Made by a program: the position numbers and the translations under genes | Shown: positions 17,586-63,229 of the stretch, one piece after another | Position numbering within the stretch: the first letter of the stretch is position 1 | Layout: each line of letters begins with the position of its first letter | The notes under the pieces: model-generated | Database searches by the model: none | Told to the model about the DNA's origin: nothing | Seen by the model: the letters and a program-made list of their open reading frames with translations, nothing else | Assembly (NCBI GenBank): GCA_905331295.1 | Contig: CAJNYD010000529.1 | Span: 1 to 64,000, forward strand | Direction: 5' to 3' | DNA from: Rotaria socialis | Lineage: Eukaryota | DNA: 64,000 nt

Positions 17586-18997
17586 TCAATTGAAGAAACT
17601 AGATTCGTTTTTGGATGTGGACAGAATTTTTTCGGCAGTTTTTAAATGAATTATATTGCTCACGATGACTGGAATTTTCATGTCAATATCCGAGAAAAGA
17701 CCAGAAACTTGAACTTTGATCAAGAGTTCATAACTCAAGACGATTCGTGCTCCAGTAAGCGAGGAAGGGTGTTCGATGGAGCATGTAGGTGGAATCGTGC
17801 GAGGTACAAATAATTCGAAACTTCTATGAAAATGTTCGCCACGAAATGATTGGGTTCCTTCCAAATCTCGATAAAGTATTTGCACTTGTTGCCGATTCAC
17901 ATAAAATAGTTGATCGCCTGGTATTCTCCTGGAGCTTATGTCCCAAATTTGAACAAGAGATGCCGACACGCCATATATAAGCACTTCATTCGAATTGTGT
18001 AAATCAATATCAAATAAGAATTTACTCTCAGTTACGACACGATTCTTCGGTAGAGTGACATGAATATGAACATTTCTATTTTTTTCTTGACTTTCGACTC
18101 TCGTTACATTTACAAACAGCGGTGAATTATGTCGAACATTAAGAAAAAAATTTTTGCAAACATTTTTCTTGTACCATTTGATTTGAGTCATTTCTATACG
18201 AATGAAATAGTGAACTAGTGGACTCTTCGGATCGGTTATGTTGATCGAAGGCAATAGGAGATGATCAACAAGGCCACTGAACGACCAAGTGTATCTACCG
18301 ATCGGTAGGGAAATCCCACTATCATTACCAATCGTGTGTGAAAGAAAATCTTGCTGGAAAAATACCATCCTATACGTCTTTGTTGATGTTGTTTTGCCTA
18401 TCTTCTCTGAAATGTTGTAGACAACCTCACCAACCAATATAATATTAATCTTCTTAAATTTTAATTCCGAATCATCACTATTGAAGAATTCGATTGTACC
18501 CGAAACAATCTCACCAGTGACATATTCAGTTTTGTCTTTATCAGTAAATTGACATTCTATACTCCATCCAGGTGGCAGAATGCTGACAAAATCTATAGCA
18601 TTAAAAAAGTATCAAAATATTTCAGAAAAGTCGACCTCAATGTGTGAATCTCAGATGTTAATCAAAGATAGACGCCATATAATTATAACAATTTACTTCG
18701 TAAAATTCAATTCTCTCAATTATACATAGGAAACTGTTTTCAACATGTGGAATTCGTATGTAGAACCGTTTTTTTCATACCTTTTGATTCTTCTCCGGAT
18801 AGATTAAATAAACCACTCCTGCCCACTGTAACCAAGACGCAACCAAGAATGGCTAACAGAATAATTACGATAAGCATAATTTTCGCACGCCTCGACATGC
18901 CCGATTCACCTGTAATATATGTTGGTTGATAAGTAACTAGGGTTGTGGGATGTCCATCGCAATTTGCAGACAGCATAGGTGATTGTACTGTATTCAT
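17586..18997 (-). CDS. Arrestin-fold (alpha-arrestin-like) protein with N-terminal transmembrane anchor, 407 aa, 2 exons
   Basis: Exons 18997-18781 and 18592-17586 join in phase 1 across a GT-AG intron. Arrestin-like motifs YVTGEIVSGTI, LVGEV, LPIGRYTWSF, LLPS, VHYFIR, IPPT, SYELLIKV, IPVIV. Hydrophobic IMLIVIILLAILGCVLVTV in exon 1. Confidence 0.75.
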
Positions 18998-29369: not shown

Positions 29370-29831
29370 TCATTGTTGATGCACCTCCCAATTGATGTTG
29401 ACACCATACCGTTGTAATTTCTGAGGACCAACAAATTTGAGAATGTAAAGATAGTCAGCATCCGAATATTGAACGAGAGTATCATCTGAAGTGGTCACAT
29501 CCGTCTCTTGATTCTTGTAGATGCGAAAAATATTATTGACACCAGCGCGAACTTCATGATTCTCTAGATATAGAATGGATGGCTTCTTCTCTACGGTGAA
29601 TGAAGAGACGATGTTGATTGTGAGATTGTGTAGCGGGTACGACCAGAAGAAGCGAACTGAGTCACAGTTCACAAATTTAGTGTCTTTAAGATTGAGTATT
29701 GAATCTTCACATCCATCCGTCATCACAGTAGCAGTGCATTGCGCAAAAGAACTGATGCGAGCCTGGCAAGAATCAGTAGCTTCACTTTTAACGACGATGC
29801 AGAGGTAGGCAATAATAACAGCGAGAAACAT
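29370..29831 (-). CDS. Small putative secreted protein of unknown family, 153 aa, single exon
   Basis: ATG at 29831, signal-peptide-like MFLAVIIAYLCIVVKSEA, four Cys in the mature N-terminal part, beta-rich-looking remainder. Confidence 0.65.
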   Translation of the reverse strand: MFLAVIIAYLCIVVKSEATDSCQARISSFAQCTATVMTDGCEDSILNLKDTKFVNCDSVRFFWSYPLHNLTINIVSSFTVEKKPSILYLENHEVRAGVNNIFRIYKNQETDVTTSDDTLVQYSDADYLYILKFVGPQKLQRYGVNINWEVHQQ

Positions 29832-31097
29832 GATAATGGCTGATATCACCGTTTGCGAATGAATGAATGAATGAATGATATAATGCAAGGATAGAATCCT
29901 TTAAGAGTAAAATAAAGAAGTGCATCCAGATGGACATAATCACACAGTGATTCAGACAATTGTGATCCCATTACATTTTGAGTGCAACTTCAAAAGTATA
30001 GTCATGCTGACAGAACAGCTTTAATTCATCGAATAAGAAGTGAAACCAAAAGAGAAATATTCAGAATATCAATAAAGAGGTACTTGAACACAAATGAGAT
30101 TTTATTCACTTTCAGCTGATGAGCTACGTGAAAAAGCATAATTGCGCAAGATGTATCTGTTTTTTTATTCTCCTTTTAAAAATAGGTTTTTTTGGTCAGT
30201 ATTATTTTTAAAAGAATTATATGTAAATGTTAACCCTAATTATTACATCTTTTTTGGCCCATTTTACCTAAAAATGGCTGAAAAATAAAATTCGAAAATA
30301 TTTTCTCCATTTTCCATCAATAATAAAATCGTTCTGATAGGCTCTTTTTTTCATTACCAAAGTTGTGTAGTTTTCTGGAGAGCAACTGATTACGCAGGCG
30401 CATCTTGAATACAGTTATTAAGAGTACCAATATTGAAGCTTGTTCAATCTAAAATATCACCACAATCATATACATTATTGCCGACATTGCCAGTATATTC
30501 ACACCTTCATCGATATTCAATATATGTTCTACAATTCATTTTCGCATGAATGTGTTAGTTTTAAGTTGAGAAAATGAAGTACAGAATAAGCAGATTTCAT
30601 TGTTTATCTATACATAGTTTGGGTGTCAACTAGCTAATGTAGTGGAGAGGCTCTCTTAGAAAACTCAATGAAAATGGTAAATTTCTCTGTAACTGCTGTG
30701 TCATATCGATTGTATCCACGCTAGGATGTTTAGTTTGGCAACTCTGATGCGAATTTTTTCTTAGAAACATGCCGCATGAAACTACCAATAAACACTGTTT
30801 CTTTCAAAAAATAATATATTTGGTTCTGCAATAATTTTCTCTTTTTCTTTAAAAAAAACATACAGATCTGTCGCATCATAAGTCTTTCTTGTGATAAAGA
30901 TATTTTTTATGTGGGATTCTCCCCATCGAATATATTTATTTAGAGAAGAGTAATTTACGATGACAGATAGCTTGTCAGCTGTAAAGCAGAAGTATATATG
31001 ACACTTCATTTTCTTCTCTCCTTACATTTGTGATACAGATTCATCAAAGTAACTATTGCATGAGTTTTCTGAGGAACAACACTAAAGCTAACGGATA

Positions 31098-31557
31098 GGC
31101 CAAAAAGAATTAAAGCGCCAGTATTTTGATTGTTTCTCCTCGTTGTTATACTTGATCGAGTTAATTTTGTACCTGAAGATTTCCCTTTCAATTTTCTACA
31201 AAACAGTTTACTCTAGTGACAAAGTAGGATTTTCTCTAGGTAGAATGTAAGATTCCTTATTTTTTCGATTATTCCATTCCTCTCTAATAATCCAATTCCA
31301 ATGTTCCGTTTCTAAATAAAGTTTTCTGGTCAGAATTCGAACTAGTTGCTGCGAAATAGCGTTTCTCTCAATAATTTGGCTTGAAATATGAACGAAAAAA
31401 CTTGGGAGTTTTCATTTTAAGGTTTGTTTTTTCATTCTGTGATTATATACCATTGAAAACCCTAGAGAAGTCTAACTTTGCTTGTAAAAAATTAATTCAA
31501 TCAAGTGTTAACCCGAGGAGAAAATATGAAAATACTGGTGCTATAGTTATTTTTGAC
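31098..31557. repeat. Degenerate ~75-bp inverted repeat pair, probably part of an old DNA transposon
   Basis: 31098-31172 resembles the reverse complement of 31484-31557 (ccagtatttt...ttctcctcg...acttgat..a.ttaatttt). Confidence 0.5.
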
Positions 31558-31664
31558 TCACTCGTTGCATACAGTTACTTTTCAACAGTGTAAATAAGTT
31601 TTAAAAAAATATTTTCTTCAGACACTATTAATTAATCCTTCGGTACAATTAAAACGCTAAAAAC

Positions 31665-32257
31665 ATGGCTCCAAAAACCATTTCTAACCATCTGTTAGAT
31701 GTGAGCGTCTTGTTAGTTTTTGCCATTGTTCTGGTAGGTAAAAGCATGAGAAGTTAAGATTCAGTCTACTTTGATTCGTCATTATTTATCAGGTCGTGTC
31801 AGCAACAAGTGAACAAGATAAGTGTTTGAAACCTTACGGCGATTCCTGTACAGATTCGACGCCGATGCCAACAAGAGCTGAAGGTTTAGGAGTTTATTAT
31901 GAAGAACCATGCTACGGAGTCGGATGTGGATTCTTTCGACCTTACTGCCGTCTTTGTTGGATTGATCCAAAAGCACCTGGTAGAATGGATCGTCCACAAT
32001 GTCCGCAATGTGTTATTGATCGAGAACGGAGAACAGACACTCAAGATCTACGATGTAAACTGCCTCCTGGAAACTCTTGTACCAGCGGGACGCCGAAAAA
32101 CACGAAAAAGGAAGGTTTAGGAGTTTATTATGAAAACCCATGCCATGGAGCCGGATGTGGATTCTTTCAACCTTACTGCCGTCTTTGTTGGATTGATCCA
32201 AAAGCACCTGGTAGAATGGATCGCCCACAGTGTCCAAAATGTGTAGCTAGCTTTTAA
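31665..32257 (+). CDS. Putative secreted protein with two tandem 8-Cys modules (~177 aa, 2 exons)
   Basis: Exon 31665-31733 (MAPKTISNHLLDVSVLLVFAIVL), 59-nt intron, exon 31793-32257 (VVSA-TSEQDKC...). Two repeats of C-x7-C-x11-GLGVYYExPCxGxGCGFFxPYCRLCWIDPKAPGRMDRPQCPxC. The start codon is less certain than the rest. Confidence 0.8.
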
Positions 32258-32894
32258 TGTCATGCTATTAAAGTTCAAATTTATTTCCCCTATGTAGCCC
32301 GTGACCTTATCAAACCTTTTTTTCTAAGGTACTTTACACATCACTGTTCCTTTTTAGTAGTACAAAAAATAAATTATGTATAATATAATGTGCGCGTGTG
32401 TAATACAGAGATAGTGAGAAAAAGAAAGCAATGGAAAACTGTCACAGACACCTTGTTTACATTATTTTTGGCTTCCTCCTACGATGGAGAGATGTAATTA
32501 AATTCACATTTATCCGTGAACATTTTGGTATGAAGAAACAAAAAATGCATATATAATAGAAGTATATTTTGTTACGTTTATAATATCTTTAACATCGTTT
32601 TGACGCATTTTTTCCCTTAAAACCTTTTCTCAAGCCCGGTTAGTTATCTGTTCAGTAAAAGTTTAAAAAAAATAGCGAGTTAATCCCGTAATTTTGAAAT
32701 TCTATCGTTCGTTGTGTTGATATTCTACTTTGCAAGTAAATGCAGTGAAATTATAAGGCAATCTCGTGCATCATCTATATTCTTTTATATTTCTCTTTGA
32801 AGACAGTTTTTTTCCTAGAGCAAATTGTACGATACGTTGCTTGTTTATCACAAAACTTCGTAAAAAGTCGTCTGATTTTTTTAATGTCAAAGCG

Positions 32895-33140
32895 TGTAAG
32901 ACTTCTTTTCTTATCGGTTGACTATTGTACCCCTTTATTGAAGAAAACACTCCATCATCTATATTGTATGAAAACTCAGACAGAGAGATAGTTAGTACAA
33001 GAGAGAAAAGGAGATAGAGAGAGTTAGTACACCGAACGATATATGTTCCTTTGACCTGTGACAAGAGACATGAAGATAAAACTGCATAGAAGAAGAATAA
33101 AAGTGATGATATGATCTCACGAAAGATGAAGATTATAACA
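32895..33140 (-). repeat. 3' LTR (246 bp), preceded on the minus strand by polypurine tract GGGAGAGG
   Basis: Direct repeat of 38322-38561; cctctccc at 33141-33148. Confidence 0.95.
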
Positions 33141-33412
33141 CCTCTCCCGTACAAAAAAAACGGTGCGCGCCCCGTGCATCGAACAATGATCAGTATAAAT
33201 AAGATAAAATGAAAACTTTTTTGTTTTTGTATTATAAGGTACTTCTTGTGATCTGTTAAAATTGAGAATTTGAGTTGCCACACCTCAATTTGATAATGAT
33301 AAGACGTTGCCACGTCGTCTTCGATCACTGTTGATAATCGTGATAAAATATGATTGTATCAGTTTGAATACTTTGTAATTAGACGACTCGTTCCATAACC
33401 CGTTGTAGTTGA

Positions 33413-36400
33413 CTAATATGAGCTCATGTAAATTTTCGTTTCATTATTTTGAACAAAATAATTTTGTTCACCTGTCTTATTGATCATTTGACAAGGTCTT
33501 ATCCGCCGTTCATCTAATTTTGTACGATTAGCACATACCTTCAGAAATACTAAGTCACCAATAGAATAAGACAAATCTTTGCGATGTTTGCCATATCGCA
33601 GTTTTGTTAATTGTTGTTGATGACGCATGTTTTCTTGAGCTTGTTTAAGAATTGTTCGTCGTGTTTTTTGTAAATATTTGAAAAATGTATGCGGTCGAGT
33701 TAAAGTGAAGTTGCTCGAGTTAGAATCAAATGAACTCTTTTGTCGTCGACCAAATGCAAGTTCATACGAAATAAAGCCAGTTGTAGCATGGATGCCTGTA
33801 TTGTAGACATAAACTACGGACTGAAGATAATCATCCCAGCCATCTTCGTTCTCATCATAATACTTTCCCAGCTGTGTACAAAACGTAGCATTAAAGTGCT
33901 CGACTTGGCCATTCGTTTGCGGATGATACGAAGCTGAAAATGAATGAGTAGTTTTTATCATTGTGGTAATTGTCTTCATTAATGTGTGGTTAAAATGTAC
34001 TCCGTTATCTGTAATAAGTCGTTCAGGTGCACCATGTATCATAATGAATTCGTTCATAATGAATTCAGCAGTAGCCTTAGCAGTATTATTTGAGATCGCT
34101 TTTGCTATCACGTACTTTGATAAATTGTCCGTAAGCACTATCACATATCGATTCCCCTGTGACGATGTGCGAACAGGACCCCAGAAATTCATATTTAATA
34201 CTTGAAATACATCTGTTGGTGGATCAAACGATTTAAGATGATCTGGTGTTTTGCTTTGTACGATATTGAATTTCCTGCATTTTTGACATGATGCGATGTA
34301 ATGTTCAATTGATTTGCGTATAATCAGGCCACTAAAATCGAGTATGAATTTTATGTAAAGTGCGTTGCACTCCGAAATACCCACTCAATGGATGATAATG
34401 AAATGCTTCTAATAGTGTGCTTAGCATTGACACAGGTAAATAAGGAAACGTGCTCTTGGTACTATCGTTTTTCTTGGTGATAAGACGAAATAAGATGTTG
34501 CTGTACAGTACATAGTTATCCATTTTCTGTTGGGCATGAATACGTGAAATAATAAGTTGAATATCAATATCATGATTTGTTCACTTTTGATCTTTTCCAA
34601 AGAAAAGTCTAAAATTGAGGTAGATTTAAGTAGAGGTGTTGATGTTTTCGGGTGATCTTCGGTCACGGTTGGTAATGACGAAGCACTTGTAGTTGCTTGT
34701 TTTGTTATAGATCGAGTGATGGCAGAAAGTGACTGTTGCTGATTGTCACTATCAATTGTTTCATATCGAGTAAGATAACCAGGACCGATATTGTCAATAC
34801 CACGCCTATACTTTATTTCAATAATTTGTGGTATTAAATCTTGTAAATATATCAACCAATTGTCAATTCTTTTGTTACCATAGTTTCGCTTCTTATGCAT
34901 ATTGACCAATGGCTTGTGATCTATTCCGATGGTGATTTCAGAATCTCCAATATAATTTCTCAATTTAGTAAGACACCAATAGATCGCTAAAGCTTCTTGT
35001 TCTGTGGTTGAATACCTACTTTAAATGTCATTCAGTAATCTGGATTTGCAGTAGCAAATCCTCAATCCATCAGTTGTATCTTGCTTGAGTACATCAGCAA
35101 TTCTTAGATCACTTGCATCTGTAGATAAGATAAATGGTACTGATCGGTTTGGAAAATCGAGGAATAGTGGTGCACTTGTCAGTATTGATTTAAATTTGTC
35201 GAAGGCATCTTGTTGTTGTTGTTCCCAACGAAATTCATTTCTTTTTGTTCTTGTCTTGTTAGTAACCTTGTGAATGGGTGCAGCAATTTTTGCGAAGTCT
35301 GGAATAAATTTACGATAATATCCAATTTTACCTATAAACTTGTTGGCTTGTGAAAGCGTTTTTGGCGGAGCAATATTAACAATTGCTTTGATCTTGTCTA
35401 ATGATGGTTCCAATTTGTCAGATGTAACAAAGTGACTTAAAAATTCGATCTTTTTGACGGCAATTGAGCATTTTGCTGGTGATACTTGCAAGTTGGCCTT
35501 GTGAAGTGTTGAGATAACGTCGGCCACGTGTTGTTTGTGTTCTTCGATTGTTTTCGAAAAAATCACAATATCATCAAGATAGACAACCACATAGTCCCAT
35601 CGTCCATTGGCCAATAATTCATTCATCACCCTTTGGAATGTTGGTGGAGCATTCATAAGACCTTGAGCAAGTACCGTAAATTCATAGAGGCCGTCTTGAG
35701 TGATTATAGCCGTCTTGGGTATATCGGATTTGTGTATTGGTATTTGGAAGTAACCGGACTTTAAATCTAATTTGGTGAAGTATTGATGCCCAGCCAAACG
35801 ATGAAGTAACTCTTCAGCTGATGGTTGAGGGTATGAGTCCTTTTTTGTGATTGAATTCAGTCGGCGGAAGTCAACCAGAAATCTATACGTACCATCCGGT
35901 TCCCTCTTTAATAACACTGGTGACGACCATGGCGAGTTTGACGGTCGAAGAATTCCTTGATCAAGTAACATTCCTACTTCCTGTTGAACTTCCTTTCTTT
36001 GTTGTACTGTCTTATAATATGGTCGAACACTTGTTGGTAGGTGATCACCAGTGTTGATTGTATGATGAATCTTGGTTTTTGCTCTGGTCATTTTTGAGTT
36101 GTCAAATGAACGTTCATTTTGTCGAAGGATGTTAGGAAAATCATTGCGATTGTATTTGTCACCAATGTGCATCACTAATTCTTGAAGAGTATTTTCGAGT
36201 AATGATAATTTTAATGATTCTTGTTGTTCATTTGTTTGTATTGAATTCAGTTGAGTACTTTGTTCTGTCATACTTGATTGCTTATCTGTGTTTAATATGC
36301 TATACATCATTTCATCATTTGACTGATAGTGTATTGATCCAAGTTTTTTAGTACTAGCTAGTTTGTAGATATTTTTGTTAGGATTATAAATGCAAACATA

Positions 36401-37021
36401 AAATGAGAAATCTTTAATTTCAACAAAAGCATCAGATACTTGAACATTTAACTTAGCACATTTTTTAATATCTGGTAAAAAAGAAACAAGATTAGCAGAT
36501 GAAATCGGTACATAAATTTTGACTATATGCTCATGATGTGGTAATAAAGTGATGCATTCAGCGAGACGGACATCGGCTGACCCTGAGTTCAAGAAAGGTG
36601 TTATCGTAATTCCGTATTTTGGATGATTTATTTCGACTTGTTTTTTACCGATATTCACGTTCACATTATTTGATTTGCACCAGTCCATACCAAGAATTAA
36701 ATTTGCACCTAATGAATCGACAATCAGAGCTGTAATGATGGTAGCAATATCATTGATAGTAATAGTTAATTCAACTGCACCGCTGACTATTATTTTGGTT
36801 TTTCCATCACCAAGTACTGCTGTTGTTTGAATTTGTTGAATTGGTGGATGTGTAATAAGATCAAGTTCAGTTTGTGATATAATTGATGTAGTAGCTCCCG
36901 TATCAAGCATCGCATGAATTAATGTACCATTAACGATTGTTCCAATTATTATAAGTGATGGGTGAGATTGTGGAAAGGAAGTATGACCATCACATACTCC
37001 CCCTAGTAGTTTTTTGAACAA
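33413..37021 (-). pseudogene. pol: Gypsy pol (protease, RT, RNase H, integrase) with a stop and frameshifts
   Basis: LDTGA, YLDD, TDAS, TDNG, PQTNGQVE. In-frame TAA at 35021-35023 inside RNase H; frame shifts near 34550 and 34340. Confidence 0.95.
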
Positions 37022-38259
37022 TTATATTGATAATGGTCCATACCACCGCATGACCAACATCCGCCATAGCTTTTCTCACTGTTGTTATGTTGAGGTTGAT
37101 GTGAAGCGTATGTTGTGTAATGCTGTTGATGTCGTGGTTGTTGTGACGAATTGTTGTATTGGTGTTGCGGAGAATTGTATTGCTGTTGTGGAATCGAAGA
37201 ATAAGGTTGTTGTTGGATGAAAGGTTGTTGTGTTGTTGTTGTTGCTATATGTCTACGATTATCAAAAGATATGGTAGCTCTCACCTGATTCTTTTCTTCT
37301 TCTTGCCATTTGTCATACTTAATAAGAGCTTGAAGAAATTCTTCCAAAGTGGCAGGACTTTTTAAATCCATATGTAGTTGAGCTGCTGCATTCAGTCCTT
37401 TAGTAAGATGTTTGAGTCGAGTTTCATCATCCATGTATTTATTAACCTTTGAACAAAGTCTTAGAACATTATGACAATAATCAATTGCTAATTCATTTGT
37501 TTGTCGTCGTCGATTGTAAAGCTTTTGTTCCAGTTGAAAATGATCGGTACCAGTTACAAGTTTAAAATAGGTTGTTAATTTATTTTTTAATGTTACCCAA
37601 TCATGAATTGTGTCCTTGTATGTATCATACCATAATTTGTCATTGCCCTTGAGAAGATCAATAACCACCGATAAACGTTGAGCATCGTCTAGTTGAACTT
37701 GATCACACTTGTTACTAAAGTTGTTGATCCAATCTGAGACTTCTTGTGAAGCTGATCCAGTGAATGGAGTAGAATCAAGAAGTTGATTGATTCTTTTAGA
37801 GTGTAGTTGTTTAACAGCTTGTTCCTTAAGACTAGACTCCATATTCATAATAACAGACGATGTTGACTGCCACAATGGAGCTGTTGTTAATGATGATGTT
37901 TTTGTTGGCAGTACATTGTGACATAACGCATTACTTACTTGTATAGCTTCAATTGTTTGAGTAAGATTGTTGATGGTGAACTGTTGTGTTGCCATCTCTT
38001 GGTTAATTTCTTTGTTTTCATCTAGAAGCAAATCTTGTTTAGCCAATAGTCGTTGCATTAATAACATCATTTTATTTGATTGTTGAATATCCATTTGTGC
38101 TTGTTTGTTTTCATCTTGATCATCCATTCGTATCTGTTGTTGTTCGATGTAGGATGGAGATGATCCTCGTCTTACTTTGTGTTCAGAATCAGTTAATGAC
38201 GAAAATTCTTGCTTCTGTGCCATGCTTCGAGTATGATGTTTTCGTTCGTTGTTGTTCAT
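37003..38259 (-). CDS. gag: Gypsy gag, 418 aa
   Basis: Open ORF, capsid-like region, Q-rich linker, CCHC knuckle CWSCGGMDHYQYNC. Confidence 0.92.
   Translation of the reverse strand: MNNNERKHHTRSMAQKQEFSSLTDSEHKVRRGSSPSYIEQQQIRMDDQDENKQAQMDIQQSNKMMLLMQRLLAKQDLLLDENKEINQEMATQQFTINNLTQTIEAIQVSNALCHNVLPTKTSSLTTAPLWQSTSSVIMNMESSLKEQAVKQLHSKRINQLLDSTPFTGSASQEVSDWINNFSNKCDQVQLDDAQRLSVVIDLLKGNDKLWYDTYKDTIHDWVTLKNKLTTYFKLVTGTDHFQLEQKLYNRRRQTNELAIDYCHNVLRLCSKVNKYMDDETRLKHLTKGLNAAAQLHMDLKSPATLEEFLQALIKYDKWQEEEKNQVRATISFDNRRHIATTTTQQPFIQQQPYSSIPQQQYNSPQHQYNNSSQQPRHQQHYTTYASHQPQHNNSEKSYGGCWSCGGMDHYQYNCSKNY
37009..37015 (-). promoter_or_regulatory. -1 ribosomal frameshift slippery site A AAA AAC (gag/pol)
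   Basis: gag reads TCA AAA AAC TAC TAG; pol is open in the -1 frame across the same bases. Confidence 0.8.
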
Positions 38260-38303
38260 GTACGACTCCGGATTACTTACTGTGTTGTTGAATTGTCAGT
38301 AAG

Positions 38304-38319
38304 ATCGGCTAGTGCACCA
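38304..38319 (-). promoter_or_regulatory. Primer binding site TGGTGCACTAGCCG (resembles the complement of a tRNA-Gly 3' end)
   Basis: Begins with TGG 2 nt inside the 5' LTR; tRNA identity is an inference. Confidence 0.7.
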
Positions 38320-38321
38320 AT

Positions 38322-38561
38322 TGTAAGACTTCTTTTCTTATCGGTTGACTATTGTACCCCTTTATTGAAGAAAACACTCCATCATCTATATTGTATGAAA
38401 ACTCAGACAGAGAGATAGTTAGTACAAGAGAGAAAGAGAGAGAGTTAGTACACCGAACAATATATGTTCCTTTGACCTGTGGCAAGAGATATGACGAGAA
38501 AACTGCATAGGAGAAGAATAGAAGTGATGATATGATCTTACGAATGATGAAGATAATAACA
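38322..38561 (-). repeat. 5' LTR (240 bp)
   Basis: Direct repeat of 32895-33140. Confidence 0.95.
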
Positions 38562-38640
38562 AAGCGTTCATATTTTCGCAAATTATTTGTCTCATGGCGA
38601 TGACAAGACTTTTTCGATAAAAAATACAATGTAAGTGAAT

Positions 38641-39718
38641 TCAACTGAATTTGCTTAAAACCACAGAAACGCACGGTGGACACTGTGGACGGTCCATTTT
38701 GCCAGGTGCCTTTGGATCAATCCAACAAAGACGGCAGTAAGGTCGAAAGAATCCACACCCAACTCCATAGCATGGTTCTTCATAATAAACTCCTAAACCT
38801 TCAGCTCTTGTTGGCATCGGCGTTGCCATTGTACAAGAGTTATCCCTAGGCAGTTTACATCGACCATCGTTGAGATCTAGTTTAGGTGGCGGGTGAGGGT
38901 CAGGGTCATTCGAAAAAAATAAATAAATTATCACCGCAATCGTTGCTGATATCATTAGAATAAAGCCAAGTGATAGGATAATTAAACGTTTCCGATTACA
39001 ATAAATTCCTCGAAATTTATTAATTCCAATATTGATGGAGTGCGGTCCAGAATGAATATTTTCTGCTTTTGTGACTGGTGTTACCATTGACATAACTGAT
39101 ATTGGAATATTTGTATTGTTAGTATTAATTTGATGAAGTTCCTGAGTCATATCTTGAGGAAAAAAATGGGTACTTATAAATTATTCACATGTACAATGTA
39201 AAATGAATTTCACACAAACATACGTGAAATATGTGTTGTAGCTATTTTATCATCTTCCATATCTTTCATCAAGTCATCGACAAAACTCGAACCACTACTC
39301 GTTGTAAACTGGAGACAGCGGCTGTTGCTGCTCGTATCAGCTGTAGAAGTCACATTATTGTCAGAGTTCGACGGTGAACGAGTTTTTAATATTCGTTGTT
39401 GAAGTTCTAAAAGATAGCAGACGAAACAGTTAGAAGTCTTTCATGAAACACACATATACCTCTTAAACTCTTCGTTGCTTGATAACATTTGATAGCTTCA
39501 AATGCTGCAATTAAATAGGTAAAGTTTTCTTCCGATATTTTTCTTCGATCGAAAAGTTGTTGAAATATGTTTAATGTGCCGCCAATTGTTGGATCGTCTA
39601 TAATACTTCGTTCAATATCTTCGCTCAAAAGAAACGATAGTTTTTTTCGTTCGTTAGCACCCAAATGATCAAGAATATCGATTAGTACTGTACGAAACTG
39701 TTTGTTTGGCTCATTCAT
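38641..39718 (-). CDS. Type II membrane protein: death effector domain, linker, TM helix, 8-Cys ectodomain; 317 aa, 3 exons
   Basis: Exons 39718-39460, 39406-39224 and 39152-38641 join through two phase-1 GT-AG introns (53 and 71 nt) into a 954-nt open frame. Exon 1 is DED-like (FRTVLIDILDHLGANERKKLSFLL...LNIFQQLFDRRKISEENFTYLIAAFEAI). TM LIILSLGFILMISATIAVIIYLFF follows RKR. The C-terminal module matches the 31665-32257 repeats. Confidence 0.85.
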
Positions 39719-41987
39719 GATGTCGTAGTATTCTGAAAGTGGGTACAGAAAAGAAGAAATCTACATCTTCTATCAATCGAGGAGAGATATAAAATCAGTT
39801 ATCAGTTCTGTGTGAGATCGAATGCTGAGAACTGGAAATAAGGCTTCAACAAAATCTACACATCTTCGTAGAAGAGTATTTTTTCATAGTAGGTACTGCT
39901 CTCAGATTGACGTTAGACTAGGAAGTGCTGCTAAATCAGTATCAACAAAGCAAAGTTTAACCAGAGAAAATAGAGAAAAGAACAATTTATGCTTGTGTCA
40001 GCCTGTCTTCCTCTTTTGTTTGTCCCAGAACTGATTATTCTGGAAGATGTTGTCATCGTTGGACTCGTGCAGGAGAAGAAAAACAAGAAAAAGATATTTA
40101 GAACGTTAACACGATCGTACGACAGATATTTTTAGATGGCAATAGATAAACGAAGGGATATGCATGTGGGAAAATATCAGCAATATCGTAACTCAAGAAT
40201 ATTCATCTACGGAAGGAAGAAAGAGAGATATGCGGGAAACTTCTCGGGCAACATTTCCGTCAATTATTAATTATTTTTATTCTTTCTTATATTTTACTCA
40301 AATAATACTAAATTAAATAAAAATAAAAATCATTTATTAGAATTAAACCTTTATAATTCACGTTGCAACAATCGAAGTTGTTTTCTTCACATGATAAACA
40401 AGAATGTAGAGTTGTTATTCCATTTCTTTCTTCTTTTCTTTGATCATATGATAGTAAAGGATCGAGGAAGAAAACAAATATTTGGAAGTTCTTTTTAATA
40501 ATTTCGTAATTTCAATCAATGAGAGAGATAGACAAGTCGATTTTTTTATGAATGGTTCTTAGTGTTTCGCTTCCAAAACTCATTGTTCATAATAAATGCT
40601 TATTTGTCAAAAAGTCTAATAATAAGATTATCATTACTTGAAGTTAAGTTATAATATTTTATGATAATGATGGTTGAATGATTTTTTTTGGTTCTTTAGA
40701 TTCAATTAATGTATGACAAAAATCGGCTCATGGAAAATAGTTTGAATTCTATAAAAAAAAAAAGCTGGTATGGATGCATTACAGAACAAAGCAAATAATG
40801 TTTCCTTTTTTCCTATATTAATGCAAATCAATATTCGATATTTGATGGCGATTGAAATAATTTTTATTGAATTATTAGAAGCGAAGCAAATATAATCATT
40901 TAATATAGTATTATCAGTTGGATGATTGAGAAGTTTAGTAAAGAAAAGTCGTCAGTTATTTATCTCTTCTATTCTAGACGAAGAATTCCAATATGAACAG
41001 CAGCTAGAAGAGGAATTACACCGAGTATTTTTGAATTTATTTTTATAAATAATCGATTGAAATCAAATTATACCACAAAACCAAGAAGTAGACTCTGATA
41101 CTGAAAAGAAAATGCCATCCGTGATGTTTTAGCACATATTGGATGGAAGAAATAAAATTTGTATTAATACATTTCTACTTCATCTTCACTGTTTATCTCA
41201 ATGAAGACAAGTTGAGGCGCCACGAAACATGTAAGGGATGCGATAAATGGCGCCTAAACTTTCGACCAAATTCAAGATAAACCGCGTGTAAAATAAGTTC
41301 AAAAGACTTACGCTGTACCATTTGAAACTGCCAGAGCTTGAAGCCTAAGCTCGCCAAGATCAAAATTCCTGGCGTCGCAGCTATTCGATTGTTAATTTAC
41401 TCTATATGATGGTATACATAAAAGCAACTTAGCATTGTATAAAATAATATCTTGATAAAACATTCAACAAAGCTCATGGAAGAATAAACAATTTTGTTTC
41501 AGTCTCGTTTCTTATCAACTGCACAGCTGTACTCGGATAAGTAACACTCGAAATTAGCAGTGCAATGATTAACAAAGGAAAAAAGTACACGTATGCATAG
41601 AAAAATGGGAGAGGAGGTTAAAAACCAAATCTTTTTGAAAATATCTCTTCTGTTTGTCTCTTCATGTGTTCGTTTTACTAATCAGCAGATGAATAGTCAT
41701 GTAATTTGTTTTTGTCATATTTATACAAGAAAAATATTATGCGAATAAAAGCAACAAAAAGAAAATACCTGATGATATAGATAATTATTAATGTCCGTGT
41801 AGATAATGTCTAATTCTTACAAAAAAAAACATAGATCGAACGTCTGATGTAAAATTATCGAGTAGGTTGTGCTTGATTCATAAGCTCTCCATATTTTTCG
41901 TTATATTTTCTAGAAATGCCTAATAAGAAAACGTAAGAAATAAAATAAATTTCTTAATTGAATAATATTTCTTTTTTTTTCCTAAAG

Positions 41988-45086: not shown

Positions 45087-48000
45087 ATGGCTCAAAAGAA
45101 TCCTAAAGGTGGTGGTGGTAGTGTGTCAGCAACAAAACATATCGATAATAATGATATGTTTTTAAAACGAGCTCTAGAAAAATTATTAACTGAAAAAGAT
45201 ATGAAAAAATCATACCATCAACAATTAAAACGTGCATGTGAAGCAGCACTTGGTGCGTTTTCTTCTCTAATGGCTCCATAAAAATATATATTTATTACTT
45301 ATTTTAGCTTCTTTAACAAAAGAACCTCGAACTACAAAGTAAATTCAATCGATATTTGTTTTTTTCTTTTTTTAACTATTTTTCTTTCAGTATTTTATCT
45401 ATTCACGAAACTTATTTTCTTCCGTTTGAATTGGCTTGTACATCAAAGAATTCTCGAATGATCGATACTTCACTGGATTGTCTTCAAGTAAAATTTTGAA
45501 ACATTTCATTAGAAAAAAAACCGACAGTAAGCTCGTGTTTAGAAACTTCTTTTAAATGGTCACGCAATTGGCAATATAAGTGATCCGATCGATTCATCAA
45601 AATTATTAATCGATCGTATTGTATCTGTTATTTGTGCATGTTTTTATGGCATCCAAACTGAAGAAAAAGTTGAATTACAAATAATAAAAATTTGTTTAAC
45701 TATAATGACGTCGCAAACAGTTGAAATTCATCAACGTAGTGTGCTACAAATAGTTAAGACATGTTTTAATATTTATTTAACAAGCCGTTCGAAAATTAAT
45801 GAGGCAACAGCACAAGGTTGTCTTTCACAAATACTTAATGGAATTTTTTCGAAAATGGAACAAAAAATGGTTTGAAATGATTTTGATTTTTTTCTATATT
45901 TGAAAGATGAAATTTTATTTAGAGTTTAGTTAATGAGCGTAAACAAAAAGAAACAATAAGTGTAGTGACAACTGATTATGATGAAGAACAAGTAATTATT
46001 AAAGATATTCTCGATGAACTTGTTGAGAAAATTGTTTATGGTAAGAAACACTCATTTTTATTTTTGACCAATGAAAAATAATATGCAATTCAGATGAAGC
46101 AACACTAGTAGAAACCAATAGTTCATTGTCAAACAACGAAATTATTGAAGATACTCAATCAACACAAGGAGATATCAATGGCGAAATAAGACAGAATGAT
46201 GGAGGTAGGCTATCGGACTTGTTCTTGATAAGAGATTAATGATGATTGACGTTTGTAATTTGATCCGATGCAAAAGAAGTATATTGTTTTTCCTATTCTG
46301 AAAATAAGGAACAATTTATCTTTATTNGTGGAGGTAGGCTATCGGACTTGTTCTTGATAAGAGATTAATGATGATTGACGTTTGTAATTTGATCCGATGC
46401 AAAAGAAGTATATTGTTTTTCCTATTCAGAAAAAAGGAACAATTTATCTTTATTACAATCGAGTCTTCTTAAATAATGAATTTAATTTTGAGAGCATTGA
46501 TCAACTGAATAAATTAGCCCAGATTCTACTGCATATAGGTCACTATGATAAGATTGTCCCAGGTACTGTGTTTGTAGATGAATCCCAATAACCAATGAAA
46601 ACCTTGATTTCTTATCTGCAAAGAGACTTGAAATCTCTAAATTTTGAATATCTCCATATCTACTGCATATAAGTCACTATGATAAGATTGTCCCAGGTAC
46701 TGTGTTTGTAGACGAATCCCAATAACCAATGAAAACCTTGATTTCTTATCTTCAAAGAGACTTGAAATCTCTAAATTTTGAATATCTCCATTCCCCACTC
46801 AACACCGTATCATATCGTGCTGCTTGAATAAATAAAAATTTCGTATAAGCTTTTTTTTGTACTTCTTATTTTGACTTGTCACAATAGAAAACGAGAACCA
46901 TAGTTTTCATTCGATAGACACAGACATTCCTATCTACTTGACGTCACGAGTACCCGTATAATCTAAAGAAAACTTTTTACTAATTCTATTTTTGAAGCTG
47001 GATCTCAAATTTGCCTAAACATTATTTATCCGATAGCTGTCTCATACATGAATCCCATTTAATCTGTGATTTGAATGTATTCAAACTGATAAATATTTGT
47101 TAGTCCAGAAAAGTAATCTGCTTATCATTCGTTAGCTGATAGCAAGAAGACATTTCTTAGTGGTACCAAATTTTAATTTCTCTATATTTAGATTTGCAAT
47201 CGATTGATGAAGCATCATCTATTGGAAAAGTCGTGTCATCTTCATTATCAGCTGATGAAATATCTGCTGATAATTACTTCCGACATGCATATTATGTTTT
47301 TCGTGCCTTATGTAAACTATCTGACCGAGATATTAAAGATAAAGTCAATACAGATCCGAAGTATGCCAAAAATTAAATAAAAAACATGAACATTTCCTTT
47401 TATTCTATAGGACTAATTTGGATCTTAAATCTCGAATATTTTCATTACGTCTAATAATACAAATACTTCAAACATCGGGTCCAATATTTCGTTCATCAGA
47501 AGATTTTCTCCTGATAATCAAAACAAGTTTATGTGTATCATTATCACGTAATGGTGTTTCGTCCATACCTGAACTGTTTGAAATGTCTTTATTTAATTTT
47601 GTTGAATTACTTGACAAATTCAAAGCACATTTAAAAATACAAATTGAAGTAAATGAAATTATCTTTGTTTATAGAAAAAAAAGAGAAGACTTCCATTAAT
47701 TCAAATAGGTTCTATTTCGTGAAATATTCTTAACAATACTCGAAACATCGACTAGTTCATTTCGTCATAAATGGCTTGTTATTCAATCGTTGACAAAAAT
47801 TTGTGCAGGTAATTCAAATTTTTCTAGTGTCGAATGATGTTTTTTTTTTCTTGTTGCATAGATGCTCAAATAATTGTTGATTTATTTATTAATTATGATT
47901 GTTCAATGCGATCTGGAAATGTATTCGAACGTCTTGTAATTGTTCTTTCACGTGCAGCACAAGGTCGACAAGCCGTAGAATTAGGTATGGATATATTCGA

Positions 48001-51000
48001 GAAAGAAAAGCCTATTCTTAGATTAAAAAAAAATGAAAAATGACTTTTTGTGGGTATATGCAGCTTAGCAATTACAATTATTTTGTTTACGAAATAACCA
48101 AATTGATTATGCACTGTCGCAATAAACTATTGCGTGACAAGTAAAGCAGCATAATCTCCGAGACAACTAAACGGAGATTGATCCAATCAACTATTCGATT
48201 TAATCAGATAGGGAAAGACAACTTTGGCGGCTGATACGCCTTAGCAGATATTGTTATTTTTCTATTTACACAAATGATTTATGTATGAAAAATTATATCT
48301 ATCCTATAATGTTCAAAATATTTTCCTTTCAAATTGTTCTATCTAGTGGAACTATCATATAGAAATACACTAAATATTCATTAAACAGGAATAAAAACTC
48401 AAGTATAATTTTAAAACCACGAGTTAAAAGTAACTCTCCGTTAGTTTATAATCACTGATAACAAGGAACAATTGTTTATGGGCGTAATATCCCATCCTAT
48501 TTACGCTCTACTAATCATCCGTTATGGCAGCAATTCAGATCCGAATATGTTTTTTTGACTTTCAGTCAATATCAAACAGATCGATCAGAATTATTTTTGT
48601 TTTGCTAAATAGGTTGCAGTCAAGTAGAAGAGCATAATTTACGAATGAAAGGCCTCGAATGTCTTGTCTCAATATTACGATGTATGGCTGATTGGAGTAA
48701 AGATCTGTATGTCAATCCACATCTACAAAGCAATTTAGGTTTGTTTTTATTTTTCAGTTTTCAGTGGCATTTTCGAATCTTTTCTTAGGACCAGATACAA
48801 AACCAGTAAATGAAAATGGTCACGATCAAGATAGTAATCGATCATCGTCAGGTTATGTCGGTAGTGGAATTCGTCGTACGGATTCAAGTGCTTCAATAAA
48901 TTCCTCGCAATCAGCAGAACATGTTCATGATTTTGAATTAGTTCGTCAACGTAAAGAATTATTCGAAAAAGGCATCGATTTATTTAATCAAAGTGCTAAA
49001 AAAGGCTTAGAATTTCTCATTGATAAGAATCTTTTGAATAATGAACCGGAAGATATTGCGCAATTTTTTCATTCGTATCAAGATGTGTTAGATAAAACAG
49101 TGATTGGGGATTGTCTCGGTGAAGAGGATAAACGTCATAAGCAAATTATGTATGCGTATATTGATCAAATGGATTTCATACAAATGGATTTTTTAACGGC
49201 TTTAAGAAGATTTTTAGCAGGATTTCGATTACCTGGCGAAGCGCAAAAAATTGATAGATTAATGGAAAAATTTGCTGGAAGATTTTGTGAATGTAATTCA
49301 AAGTAAGGAGAAAGAAAAAGATTTTTTTGTTATTATTTCTTTCAAACTGAATAATATTAGGAGAATATGTTTTAAATCAAGGGTAGGTCTATTGAAACAT
49401 AGATAGAATGCATCGCTCTGTTTTAGCTAGATTAAACATGCATTACTTTCGAAGTAAAAGTAGTTTAGCGATTTACGATTGAAATAGAAAACCATAGTTG
49501 ATTACAGTGATTGTTTAAACAGGTGTATCTTAGAAAATTTCAAAGCGATGAAAGATTAGAGGCTAGAAATTTTTCTTTCAAAATGCTGCCTTCGAAAAAC
49601 TTTCTTCAAGAGTGTAATACATAATTTAATGTTTTAAAATAATAACTAAGCCTTTTAGTATAAAATGATTCGAAATTCTCTTCACATCGATAATGACAGA
49701 TGAGACAAATTTGAATTATCTAACTTTTCCGTATGATAATATTTTTTTAGTTTACAAATATTCGCCAGTGCTGATGCAGCCTATGTTCTGGCGTATTCCG
49801 TTATAATGCTGACAACAGATTTACATAGTATTAATGTAAGTAAATAGCTCAATGAATATAACAAAAAAACAATTCTCTAAAATACTTTAGGTGAAGAAAA
49901 AAATTACAAAAGAACAGTATATAAAAATGAATCGTGGCATTAATGACAGTCGTGATTTACCAGAAGAATTTCTATCGAAAATTTATGATGAAATTAAAAA
50001 CGAAGAAATCAAACTTAAAGTTACGTCAATGAAACGGGGAACAAAAGAAACTATTACAAATGATAAACAACGAGAATTATTATTTACTGTTCAAATGGGA
50101 AACGTCGAGTCCATAGCACGAGATTTAATGACTAGTGCAGGCTCCATGAGTGAAGAGTTTACTATAGCAAAAAATTTAGAACATGTTGGACCTATGTTTC
50201 AAGTGAATAGACTTACTAGTTTGTTCGTGAATTAAAGTTAATGAATTTTGTTTAGAAAGCCTGGTCACCATGTTTAGCGGCATTTAGTGTTAATCTTCAA
50301 GATAGTGATCATATAGATCTTACAAATCTATGTTTAATTGGTATTAGCTATGCTATTCGTATAGCTTGCATCTTTCATATGGAGGTTTGACTATTAGGAT
50401 AGATTTAAATTTGTATAAATAGATTTGTTCTCGTCTAAAAATTTAGCTTGAACGTAATGCATTTATTCAAGCATTATCACGTTTTACATTACTCATGGCA
50501 ACATCACAAGTCATAGAAATCAAAGCAAAAAATGTTGAATGCCTCAAAATACTAATATCAGTTGCACAAACCGATGGAAATTATCTTGGTGAAGCTTGGT
50601 ATGATGTAAGTATACGAAAATTTCAATCAGCTCGTTATAAATTTCGTTCTATTAGGTTTTAAAATGTATTAGTCAATTGGAATTAGCGCAATTATTTGGT
50701 GTTAATGTTAATAAAGGAAAAATGTCGGTTTCAAATCATCATCAACTGGGTATACCAACGCATATCGGTTCACCTTCAACATTCAGTTTACCATTTGATA
50801 ATATTTTCAATACTGACAAAGGTATGCTAAAGCTTAGAATCGTACAGTTTTTATCTATTTACTCTCTCACAAAACATATTGTAGAAAATATTCATGACTA
50901 TTTTTCCCGATATGAGGAGTCTAAGAAACGGCTAAATTCTTTAGGTTTGAAAGTATCAGCTTTTCGTAGGATTCGAATTTGAAAAATAAATGGAAAGATA

Positions 51001-54000
51001 ACGTTTCCTAGAATACATTTTCATTTGATATCATTATTGATTTGATAGTAAAATATTCTTTGAACCTATAAAGGAGTTTTTAATGTTCTGAAATCTTATA
51101 TCACTGCATATATCCATTTTGCATTGTATAGCTGTAATTAGGGGTGGGCCATTAACATTAATTTAATATTAATGTTAATGTTTCTCATTAACCATTAATA
51201 TTAATGTTTAATGTTTTCTGAGAAAAACTTAATTCATTAATATTAATGATTAATGAAAAGCATTAATATTAATTTTAAAATTAATGTTTCTCATTAATCA
51301 TTAATATTAGTGTCAATGTTTTCATTAAAATTAATGACTTAATATTAATGGTTAATGTTTTCATGAAAACATTAATATTAATGATTAATGAAAACATTAA
51401 TTTTAAAATTAATACTAATTTTTTTCATTAATCATTAAGATTAATGGCTAATAGAAGTCATTAATTAATGCCGTTAATTAAGTTCCGTTAAAAAAATGGT
51501 CCACCCCTAGCTGTAATTTAGAGCTTTATGCTCACGACCAAACATCGTATTATCTAGTTATCAATAGACTAAACTCACACAAGATATTCGCTTTAAGCTA
51601 ATTATTACTGGTATTTACCAGTCCATTTGAAGACTCACATTCAGATAGGGCGTATGAAGACTAAGACTCTCAGAATAAAAGATATCGTGTTAGTCGATAA
51701 GCATTTAAAATTTCTTTTAAACAGGCTCATCAAATAGACGACTACAAACCATTCATGGTCAAATTCATGAAACAAGCTCACAGAATATAGTTGTTTCTGT
51801 TGATCGTATTTTTGCTGGATCAGCACGGTTGGATGGCGATGCAATTGGTAAGGAAAATTTGTTTTGCTTTGTTTCAATATTCTCATTCTTTATTTGCTCA
51901 GTGGCATTCGTTCGTAGTCTATGTCATGTATCCATGGATGAATTATATTCAACTCCACCTCGAATGTTTAGTTTATTAAAAGTTGTTGAAATATCCTATT
52001 ATAATATGGGACGTATTCGACTTACATGGTCAAGAATATGGGAAATTGTTGGTGACCATTTTAATAAAGTTTGTTACATATTGTTGATCAACATTACTTT
52101 ACTCGATTTTTATTCATATAGGCTGCTTGTCATCCATTGCAAGACGTCTCATTTTTTGCAGTTGATTCTTTACGACAGTTATCGATGAAATTTCTTGAAA
52201 AAGGCGAATTTCCGAATTTTCGCTTTCAAAAAGAATTTCTTAAACCATTTGAATTGATCATGAAAAAAAATTCGTACGTGTTTATTTCATTTTATTGTAT
52301 TTTTTCGCATATAGTTACTCTTATTTTGAATAGATCACCAACTATGCGTGATATGGTTGTTCGTTGCATAACACATTTTGTTGATGCACAAGCAAAAAAT
52401 ATTCGGTCTGGTTGGAAAAATATATTTAGTGTTTTTCAAATGGCTGCTACAGATACAGATGTGCAAATTGTTGAATTAGCTTTTCAAACATGTACACTTA
52501 TTGTTGGTATGCTATTTAATTCGAATTTTCTATTTAACGAGCTTAGAAATTTTCCTTACAATTGCGAACGTTAGTTATCTATCTAAGAGATCCATAACAA
52601 CGGGAAAGACTTCGAAATAAGTATTCTCAAGATATGCAGTGATTTTCATAGGGCTCATTTATAAATCTGGGAAATAATCTCTGCCATTGAATTTTTACTC
52701 GCCGTGGAATATGAGACGAGGTAATATGATTATATTGGTCCTTATTAGGTAGCTATAATCTGCTTGAGATTGAGGATCATGTGAGTGTTCGACATTTACA
52801 TTTTATTTCGAAAAAGATTGTACTACCAAGCTTTTTTCGTGTTTTCTATTACAATAGATGTGGTTTTTGATCGTTATTTTGCATCAATATTGGACAGTTT
52901 TCAAGATGCTGTTAAATGTTTATCAGAATTTGCTTGCAATGTCTCGTTTACTGATACATCCATGGAAGCCATACGATTAATTAGGCAATGTGCGAAATAT
53001 GTGGCTGAAAAACCACAAGTAATATTTTTTTAAATTTAGCTTTCAAAAACTGAAACTTAACTTTTATAGATTTTTCGTGAACATGCTGGAGAAGATCTAA
53101 TCAATGTACCCGAAGAAGATCGTATTTGGGTTAAAGGATGGTTTCCTATTCTCTTTGAATTATCATGTATTATTAATCGGTGTAAACTTGATGTGAGAAC
53201 AAGGTAACGTTATTCTAAATAATTTAAGCTTGGGAATTTTTCAACTTAAAATTCTAAGGGAATTAACATTTCAATGTTTAAATAGTAATAAAAAGAAAAA
53301 AGAGTTTTGAATTCGATCAATGAGGAAAAAAATCTTGATTGCATATTGATTTTATTTTCCAGGGCATTAACCGTCATGTTTGAAATAATGAAAAGTTATG
53401 GTGAAAGTTTTACTCAGAATTGGTGGATTGATTTATTCAATGTTGTTTTTCGTATTTTCGATAATATGAAACTGCCTGATACACAAGTAGAGGTATATCC
53501 GAAATTTCTTCTTTTCTTCTTCGGATTATCATTGAATTTAATCTGCCAATAGAAAATTGAATGGATGACAACAACTTGTAATCATGCACTCTATGCTATT
53601 GTTGATGTATTCACACAGTACTACGATGTTATACCTGAATCGGTTGTTAAAGATTTATATGCTCAATTGAAATGGTGTATTAATCAAAGTAAAATATTTA
53701 TGTTGAAAAAACACAATTCATCTTATTGATATTTATAGATAATGAACAATTGGCAAGATCAGGAACGAATTGCCTAGAAAATTTTGTTATTGCTTGCGGT
53801 CAACATTTTACTCCGAAGATATGGGAAAAATTATGTACTTGTATATTAGGAGTGTTTCATTCAACGCTACCCCAAACGTAAGTTACTAAATCGAATCAGT
53901 TATTTCATGTTTGCTAATGATAGATCTAACCCAAGAGATTAAATTGATTGAAAATATTTATGTTCGTATAGCTTCAGACAGCGGTAAATAATTGCTGCAC

Positions 54001-62241: not shown

Positions 62242-63229
62242 ATGCTTGAAAGCAATCCGATACCAATAACAACGATTGGTGGTGGTTTCACTAACATCAA
62301 TACACCATCAACAAGCAATATAATAGGTAGCATTTTTACATCCGAACAAGTTGCCTGTGTATGCGAAGTACTTCAGCAAAGTAATGATATCCAACGGCTC
62401 GGTAAGACTTTTACAATATAAATATTTAACAAATATCTTAAATAAGAAGAAGAAAAACAACAACAACAACAACTCTACTTCTTTTTTTCTTCTTCTGCAG
62501 GTGATTTTTTATGGACATTACCAACATACGAACATTTTCATAATCATGAAAGCGTTGTAAAAGCTAAGGCAGTTGTTGCATTTCGTCGTGGAAACTATCG
62601 TGAACTCTACAATATACTTGAACGCTATCAATTCGCACCATGTAGTCATCCGCAGTTGCAACAATTATGGTTACAAGCGCATTACAATGAAGCTGAAAAA
62701 CTACGTGGTAGACCGCTCGGTGCTGTTGGAAAATATCGTGTTCGACGAAAATTTCCTTTGCCACGAACAATATGGGATGGTGAAGAAACAAGTTATTGTT
62801 TTAAAGAAAAGTCACGTAATATTTTACGCGACTGGTATTTACATAATCCATATCCATCTCCAAGAGAAAAACGTGAATTAGCTGAAGCAACTACTCTAAC
62901 AACAACACAAGTATCAAATTGGTTTAAAAATCGACGACAACGAGACCGAGCATCGGAAACAAATGATAGGTTGGTTGTTATTATGAGTGAATTTAAAATT
63001 AATAAAAATTTCCTTCGGTTTTTGTAGAAAAACAATCGATATGAGCCCTTCACATAATGATGATAATTCATTAGATGATCTTGGATCAACAGGCAGTGAA
63101 CCAACGACGAAAGGTTTTCAAGTTGATTACAACAATCAACAGTATCATTATCACCATCATCATATGAAACCAACAACAACAGATATTATTGATTCTGGAG
63201 GAATGTTTAAAGATTATCATTCACTTTAA
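62242..63229 (+). CDS. SIX1/2: SIX homeobox protein, Six1/2 (sine oculis) class, 3 exons
   Basis: Six domain [12 protein letters not shown]...[26 protein letters not shown], class-diagnostic ETSY, homeodomain [10 protein letters not shown]; introns 62402-62500 and 62970-63027. Confidence 0.95.

Follow-up and report, generated by a model that had tools for sequence, protein, structure and literature searches.

The gene read from the minus strand at 38641-39718 of the window (the whole 64,000-nucleotide stretch of Rotaria socialis DNA that was analysed) encodes one protein in which a domain resembling the death effector domain (DED) precedes a predicted transmembrane helix, a short stalk and a C-terminal module of eight cysteines. 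The same module closes the secreted GH81 endo-beta-1,3-glucanases of bdelloid rotifers, and comparison of the predicted proteins showed the architecture to be that of a conserved bdelloid gene, present in several species. We propose, with a probability of about one half, that the protein is a pattern-recognition receptor: on binding of beta-glucan or a related glycan of cell walls by the module, the DEDs would cluster. The features of the window are given in Table 1.

In the list of open reading frames the region appears as two separate minus-strand frames (39407-39760 and 38641-39180) with a 76-codon frame between them. The original prediction, which joined both frames through an unlisted middle exon of 183 nt and two phase-1 introns into a product of 317 aa, was borne out. 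The three joined exons measure 954 nt (317 aa and the stop codon), and their product is identical to P0001, a public Rotaria socialis "DED domain-containing protein" on which databases already carry the DED label. Two runs, X1 and X2, cover part of the stretch, and X1 was taken as RNA from its behaviour alone: on the secreted neighbour gene its coverage was confined to exons, the intron was spliced and a poly(A) end lay near 32386, so X1 behaves as mRNA. It also splices intron 1 of the receptor gene. The three-exon gene is thus confirmed, and both it and its secreted neighbour are transcribed. Regarding intron 2, no bridging RNA contig was found among the X1 contigs searched, and a contig of X2, which is probably a DNA run, reads through it. 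When this intron is retained the frame ends after residue 150; such retention (39180-39718, minus strand) would give a soluble 150-aa DED protein, a form seen in the R. magnacalcarata model P0074, which might act naturally as a dominant-negative isoform.

Table 1. Features of the receptor gene and of the rest of the window.
Feature	Position	Strand	Description
Exon 1	39460..39718	minus	259 nt, residues 1-86, DED-like domain
Intron 1	39407..39459	minus	53 nt, phase 1, GT-AG; one X1 contig skips exactly these bases
Exon 2	39224..39406	minus	183 nt, residues 87-148, S/T-rich cytoplasmic linker with acidic EDD patch
Intron 2	39153..39223	minus	71 nt, phase 1, GT-AG; spliced in public models of four species
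Exon 3	38641..39152	minus	512 nt; linker remainder, RKR, transmembrane helix, stalk, cysteine-rich module, stop
Predicted transmembrane helix	38914..38985	minus	residues 204-227, 24 hydrophobic residues, N-terminus predicted inside
Eight-cysteine module	38668..38859	minus	residues 246-309; homologue of the module that closes GH81 beta-1,3-glucanases at the C-terminus
Secreted neighbour gene	31665..32257	plus	exons 31665-31733 and 31793-32257; convergent to the receptor gene; 177 aa, identical to P0081
Module copies of secreted neighbour	31823-32014 and 32054-32245	plus	two copies behind a signal peptide
Ty3/gypsy-type LTR retrotransposon	32895..38561	minus	LTRs 32895-33140 and 38322-38561; between receptor and secreted gene
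83-nt inverted repeat (76%)	31090-31172 and 31484-31566		encloses 311 nt, directly upstream of the secreted gene
Single-exon ORF	29370-29834	minus	154 aa, signal-peptide-like start, nothing matched in Pfam at E<=1; distance to the secreted gene 1.8 kb
Reverse-transcriptase element	21342-23271	plus	Penelope-like by our own reading
Arrestin-domain gene	17586-18611	minus	
Sec7 gene	about 45500-55200	plus	
CoA transferase gene	59017-59397	plus	
SIX homeobox gene	62446-63027	plus	

The DED-like nature of the exon 1 domain is supported by several sequence comparisons. DED (PF01335) was the only Pfam family matched at E<=1 (E 1.9e-8; 34.9 bits, slightly short of the cut-off of 35.9), leaving no competing assignment to a family outside the death fold, and the DEDs of the orthologues gave 31.9-35.8 bits with the same model. 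When exon 1 was searched against the sequences of the PDB, caspase-8 accounted for nine of the 11 matches (best E 8e-4). Residues F29-L30, the hydrophobic FL patch of helix 2, are invariant in all 18 DED-bearing sequences and align with F122-L123 of the caspase-8 chain 5l08_A, which presumably form the equivalent functional patch. The E/D-RxDL charge triad is absent from all five aligned proteins, which have CYQA or CYKA at its position; for the self-association of FADD the hydrophobic patch is reported to be critical and the RxDL motif not (PMC4558505). Across five species this domain is 63–87% identical. The comparison of folds was less clear. A receptor model built from five sequences predicts six helices, the number of a death fold, in residues 4-96, but with low pLDDT values of 52-71 (mean of 44 over the whole chain). 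Foldseek searches with this low-confidence model placed PEA-15 first, at a weak E of 0.34, with caspase-8/cFLIP and FADD among the other weak rows, whereas the top 50 VIA matches (best Z 6.4-7.3) were generic helical bundles with no death fold among them. The profile of the five whole receptor proteins did not recover the DED in the PDB; it matched nothing but a type II protein of a poxvirus, in the membrane region (E 0.009), and this was read as an effect of composition and discarded. The claim that the domain fills exon 1 exactly holds approximately: the PF01335 match spans residues 8-78 of the 86 residues, and identity to Adineta falls from 66–74% to 23–26% at the exon 1/2 border, but the last predicted helix (79-96) enters exon 2.

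A type II topology with a cytoplasmic N-terminus had also been predicted, and the evidence agrees with it. The triplet RKR (residues 201-203) stands directly before the transmembrane stretch, whose hydropathy reaches 2.77 over the best 19-residue window, and five K/R residues precede that window for one that follows it. Among the homologues with the full layout, K/R residues were more abundant upstream of the helix in four out of five, the exception being P0006 (3 vs 4). No signal peptide was found in the receptor, the best hydropathy within the first 33 residues being 0.12, and a hydrophobic stretch follows the DED in 16 of the 18 DED-bearing sequences. Furthermore, the C-terminal module should lie outside the cell because the same module occurs in proteins with signal peptides. 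The DED and the membrane helix are indeed parts of one protein, as had been proposed, but they are not directly fused, since about 115 poorly conserved residues of low model confidence separate them. This linker drifts while the domains at both ends stay conserved: identity between the receptor and Adineta is 66–74% in the DED, 15–26% in the linker and 48–78% in the module. Similarly, the proline stalk DPDPHPPP after the helix is present here but poorly kept (12–44% identity), and the stalks of the relatives are longer and S/T/P-rich.

The C-terminal module comprises 64 residues, and seven of its eight cysteines are invariant across 40 aligned sequences. The model obtained from these sequences reached a pLDDT of 92.5 and a pTM of 0.82. 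The positions of Y270 and Y271 are occupied by an aromatic residue or His in 40/40 sequences, and these conserved aromatics may be structural. For 20 members of the module no Pfam family gave a match below E 0.029. At E<=1 neither a lectin_C match in receptor or module nor a TNFR or death-domain match in the receptor was obtained, and the cysteine pattern of the module differs from that of C-type lectins. No structural relative of the model was detected by Foldseek in the PDB (best E 6.5), in a viral library (best E 3.1) or by VIA over 48,161 chains (best Z 2.4), which does not by itself prove the fold new. With sequence profiles of the module the PDB yielded nothing beyond a RING fragment and one designed kelch repeat, and the ESM Atlas gave no usable match for the secreted protein or P0001.

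A sequence search of 1.84 billion representatives identified 20 matches to the module, 16 of them genuine by alignment; P0018, P0019, P0023 and P0024 were dropped as spurious CxGxGC or kelch matches. A profile search produced 33 matches among 7,995 scored candidates, and 11 of the 33 carry GH81 Pfam domains. The module was found in four settings. It stands C-terminal to the DED and membrane helix; it follows a signal peptide, duplicated or triplicated; it closes the secreted GH81 endo-beta-1,3-glucanases of eight named bdelloid taxa; and it is present in Heterosigma, Pylaiella and Ectocarpus, in surface proteins and there also without a glucanase, as well as in the four-copy GH81 protein P0017. 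No relatives were detected in prokaryote genomes (single-protein patterns, 326 candidate stretches) or in viral contigs (3 candidates). In a metagenome scan of 42 candidates, three loci emerged; two of them are secreted genes with two copies, the third is a weak match over part of the sequence, and the DED exon was absent from all three.

Glycoside hydrolases with a binding module are usually arranged as catalytic domain, S/T/P-rich linker and small disulfide module. In the bdelloid GH81 proteins (P0057-P0066) the eight-cysteine module is terminal and follows a linker of 25-32 residues of which 72–81% are S, T, P or G (8/8 measured); it is therefore a discrete folded unit appended to a glycoside hydrolase, which is the layout of carbohydrate-binding modules. 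From this domain context alone we infer that it is a carbohydrate-binding module for glucan or a related wall glycan. These enzymes come from R. socialis, R. sordida, R. sp. Silwood1 and 2, A. vaga, A. ricciae, A. steineri and D. carnosus, and they have intact YNDHHYH and DQESTSE acidic motifs, which we take to be the catalytic motifs of GH81. The nearest solved relative of the R. socialis enzyme is the GH81 endo-beta-1,3-glucanase 5xbz (E 8e-134, 451 bits), and the enzyme aligns end to end with the non-bdelloid P0017 (39% identity, 510 bits). The bdelloid secreted GH81 may merely digest food glucans.

The named carriers of the module outside bdelloids are all stramenopiles (Heterosigma, Pylaiella and Ectocarpus). 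Because no named animal outside the bdelloids carries it in these searches, the module likely entered bdelloids horizontally, from outside the animals. That eight bdelloid taxa have a secreted GH81 ending in this module probably reflects an ancient horizontal transfer, of which no description was found in the open-licence literature. In module trees, which are based on 72-74 columns and gave long-branch warnings, the receptor and secreted modules form one clade (100/99 and 100/100), which lies within a clade of all bdelloid modules that is separate from those of stramenopile type (96/98). An origin of the receptor modules within the GH81 modules and a sister position to them were not separated (p-AU 0.41).

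A search with exon 1 gave six protein clusters among 71 candidates, from R. socialis, R. magnacalcarata, A. steineri (two), A. vaga and A. ricciae. Five of the six, from four bdelloid species, show the full layout of DED, linker, helix, stalk and module; the public A. vaga model has the DED and the module without a transmembrane helix between them and with unrelated sequence in front. Fifteen of the 18 DED-bearing sequences reach the module, two are partial and end in the stalk, and one stops in intron 2. It had been suggested that the protein is a modular scaffold with a swappable ectodomain and that paralogs with other ectodomains may exist. The ectodomain is in fact a grafted module, but all six clusters end in this same module, and no paralog with an unrelated ectodomain was found by the exon 1 search, whose reach is that of close relatives. 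Swapping is finer-grained than had been supposed: the receptor and the secreted neighbour exchange variants of one and the same module. Additionally, P0013, P0055, P0014, P0054 and P0056 carry the module in its A. steineri subtype and are anchored in the membrane. A separate clade is made up of P0013 and P0055, in which the N-terminal domain may be different or absent, and P0056 and the three-copy secreted protein P0049 come from equally long contigs (54,330).

The secreted neighbour and exon 3 of the receptor show an inverted similarity of 83–89%, and their stop codons are 711 nt apart once the retrotransposon between them is subtracted. Outside the window the pairing was read from record numbers, not DNA: the two A. 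vaga genes have consecutive locus tags (027126 and 027127), those of R. magnacalcarata are consecutive records (CAF2104296 and CAF2104297), and in A. ricciae and A. steineri the accessions of each pair lie close together, on contigs of equal length. The pair thus appears to be old and adjacent in five species. A single clade of receptor ectodomains was rejected (p-AU 0.0003, 20 rows), and the reason is A. steineri, whose ectodomain is 68–72% like its own neighbour and 48–52% like other receptors, while its DED is 73% like the Rotaria ones. Among the three module copies of the window Ks is about 0.5. Nucleotides 1-34 of the window ectodomain side with repeat 2 of the secreted gene at 11 of 12 informative sites and nucleotides 35-120 with repeat 1 at 16 of 17; the breakpoint was chosen after inspection, so P = 4e-6 is optimistic. 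Two versions of R. socialis repeat 1 differ at three residues, and the window version equals the receptor at all three. Gene conversion between the receptor ectodomain and the secreted copy is the simplest reading of these patterns. Ka is 0.39-0.65 in module codons 1-19 and 0.02-0.08 beyond them. A prediction of the complex of both proteins, made without an alignment, scored 0.00 and is evidence neither way. The RNA contig of the secreted gene begins with 11 loose bases at an AG site (31620), which presumably match the end of the bdelloid spliced leader. A bdelloid spliced leader of 23 nt has been reported (PMC1925144).

According to the proposed mechanism, the module would have arrived with a non-animal GH81 gene and would later have been grafted onto the DED exon. 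Fungi, oomycetes or algae would offer a glucan surface of repeating units, and binding of the module to this beta-glucan or a related wall glycan would cluster the receptors; the clustered DEDs would nucleate DED-DED assembly via the kept FL patch. The partner is probably not a classical caspase-8: rotifers contain no DED-containing caspase-8 according to a figure legend (PMC12066828), and this reported lack removes the textbook partner. The secreted two-copy neighbour might bind the same ligand as an opsonin, bridge or decoy, and gene conversion would keep the specificities of receptor and secreted copy matched. The more detailed version, a one-chain antifungal sensor-adaptor with a glucan-binding module of new fold taken from a horizontally acquired GH81, tuned by conversion and signalling without caspase-8, is offered tentatively. 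With respect to the target, bdelloid GH16 and GH64 glucanases are reported to rise under fungal attack, and a role in recognition was raised for them (PMC11258130). The same study is centred on foreign genes and calls the role of glucan-binding enzymes unclear (PMC11258130). In 12 of its 16 supplement files no DED or GH81 terms pointing to an infection response of the receptor or of GH81 were found. For two infection-induced genes of A. vaga annotated with GO:0042973, neither R. socialis nor A. steineri has a listed orthologue, and for this reason they are probably not GH81.

The protein could also bind glucan without an immune function, either by sensing food such as yeast or the laminarin of algae, or by serving, tethered to the membrane, as an inhibitor or scaffold of DEDs similar to PEA-15 and short FLIP. 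The single DED, with no catalytic domain and no RxDL, would suit such a role, as would the absence of DED-caspase-8 reported for rotifers (PMC12066828) and the lack of an infection response in the supplement files examined (PMC11258130). However, a ligand-binding ectodomain with a variable N-terminal module half fits recognition of a changing target, and DEDs have been grafted onto other spiralian immune sensors (PMC8998645), so we regard this possibility as rather doubtful. Another reading, which we consider unlikely, is that the module binds protein and that the linked genes are a ligand-receptor or co-receptor pair; receptors would then be cross-linked by the secreted protein with its two copies, or one host or pathogen protein would be bound by both. 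The adjacency of the pair, which is seen in the window and seems to hold in four other species, the co-variation of the modules within each pair and the stramenopile surface proteins that bear the module without glucanase are in line with it. Nevertheless, gene conversion of neighbouring copies alone also gives co-variation, and a purely self-binding domain would be needless at the end of secreted glucanases in eight bdelloid taxa. Finally, it is very improbable that intron 2 stays unspliced to give two products, a soluble 150-aa DED protein and a membrane protein starting at Met149: the intron is unbridged by RNA contigs, P0074 (151 aa) stops in it, exon 3 opens with Met and DED-less versions exist among metagenome gene calls, but the intron is canonical (71 nt, phase 1), joined models exist in four species, there is no space for a promoter, P0053 has an exon-2-like end directly upstream of an exon-3-like start, and the DED-less calls begin at the exon 3 start, as gene callers that ignore introns would presumably give.

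Several known proteins share parts of the layout of the putative glucan receptor. Dectin-1 has a type II membrane layout, a stalk and a C-terminal sugar-binding domain; the rotifer protein resembles it in its type II orientation, stalk and C-terminal module, which in its case is a presumed sugar binder, but it has no C-type lectin domain and carries the DED itself. Regions that resemble a DED or form a pseudo-DED occur in the membrane proteins BAR and BAP31, which, to our knowledge, lack an ectodomain for ligand binding. Insect GNBP/betaGRP, Limulus factor G and the soybean GH81 glucan-elicitor binding protein are immune sensors derived from beta-glucanase parts; they act as soluble or peripheral proteins, employ GH16/CBM39 or the body of GH81, and pass the signal to protease cascades or to separate receptors, whereas the rotifer receptor uses the ancillary module only, wired across the membrane to a DED. 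Dectin-1 is reported to signal to a caspase-8 complex via SYK and CARD9/BCL10/MALT1 (PMC12705816). With Fas and other TNFR death receptors the rotifer protein has in common a cysteine-rich ectodomain, one membrane pass and an intracellular domain of the death-fold kind, which in its case is putative. Those receptors are type I and have a death domain and TNFR repeats; they depend on FADD for a DED (PMC4558505). The rotifer topology is reversed and the ectodomain unrelated, with receptor and adaptor in one chain; its N-terminal DED, C-terminal ectodomain and lack of a TNFR or death-domain match place it outside the TNFR type. In operation it would resemble Dectin-1 or the insect sensors derived from glucanases, and in signalling a death receptor with FADD already built in. 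FADD, PEA-15, DEDD and DEDD2 have one DED and no protease, and in a review of DED proteins, whose text does not contain the word "transmembrane", none of those listed spans the membrane (PMC4558505). They have the FL patch in common with the receptor, which lacks RxDL. In spiralian RLRs and NLRs the sensor domain is reported to have gained a DED by exon gain (PMC8998645); they are cytosolic nucleic-acid or NACHT sensors, unlike the membrane-bound rotifer protein. No published description of the receptor gene or module was found in the open-licence literature.

If the glucan-receptor reading is right, the protein is a concrete candidate sensor for the detection of fungal enemies by bdelloids, and it would link foreign-gene acquisition with native immune signalling in one chimeric protein. 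The module, which has no Pfam model or solved relative and is common to rotifer and stramenopile glucanases, may define a new carbohydrate-binding family. A DED-bearing receptor in animals reported to lack DED-caspase-8 would point to a further DED pathway (PMC12066828). Gene conversion between receptor and secreted copy, if true, could be the way in which an asexual lineage varies recognition.

The Ty3/gypsy-type element between both genes contains matches to protease, reverse transcriptase, RNase H and integrase, its pol is split into three ORFs, and it is flanked by the target duplication AAGCG (32890-32894 and 38562-38566). The insertion is not very recent, because the LTRs agree at 228 of 246 columns. 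This retrotransposon was considered as the maker of the chimera and rejected: it has matching LTRs and a 5-bp duplication, it lies about 75 nt past the stop codon and the fusion exists in two genera. The element is a later insertion. One contig of X1 extends from exon 3 beyond the stop codon as far as the LTR and, if collinear, ends near 38354; an AATAAA at 38366, inside the LTR, lies a few bases before the end of this contig (38354-38561 region). The retrotransposon may now supply the poly(A) signal of the receptor gene. The 83-nt inverted repeat upstream of the secreted gene is possibly the remnant of a small DNA transposon.
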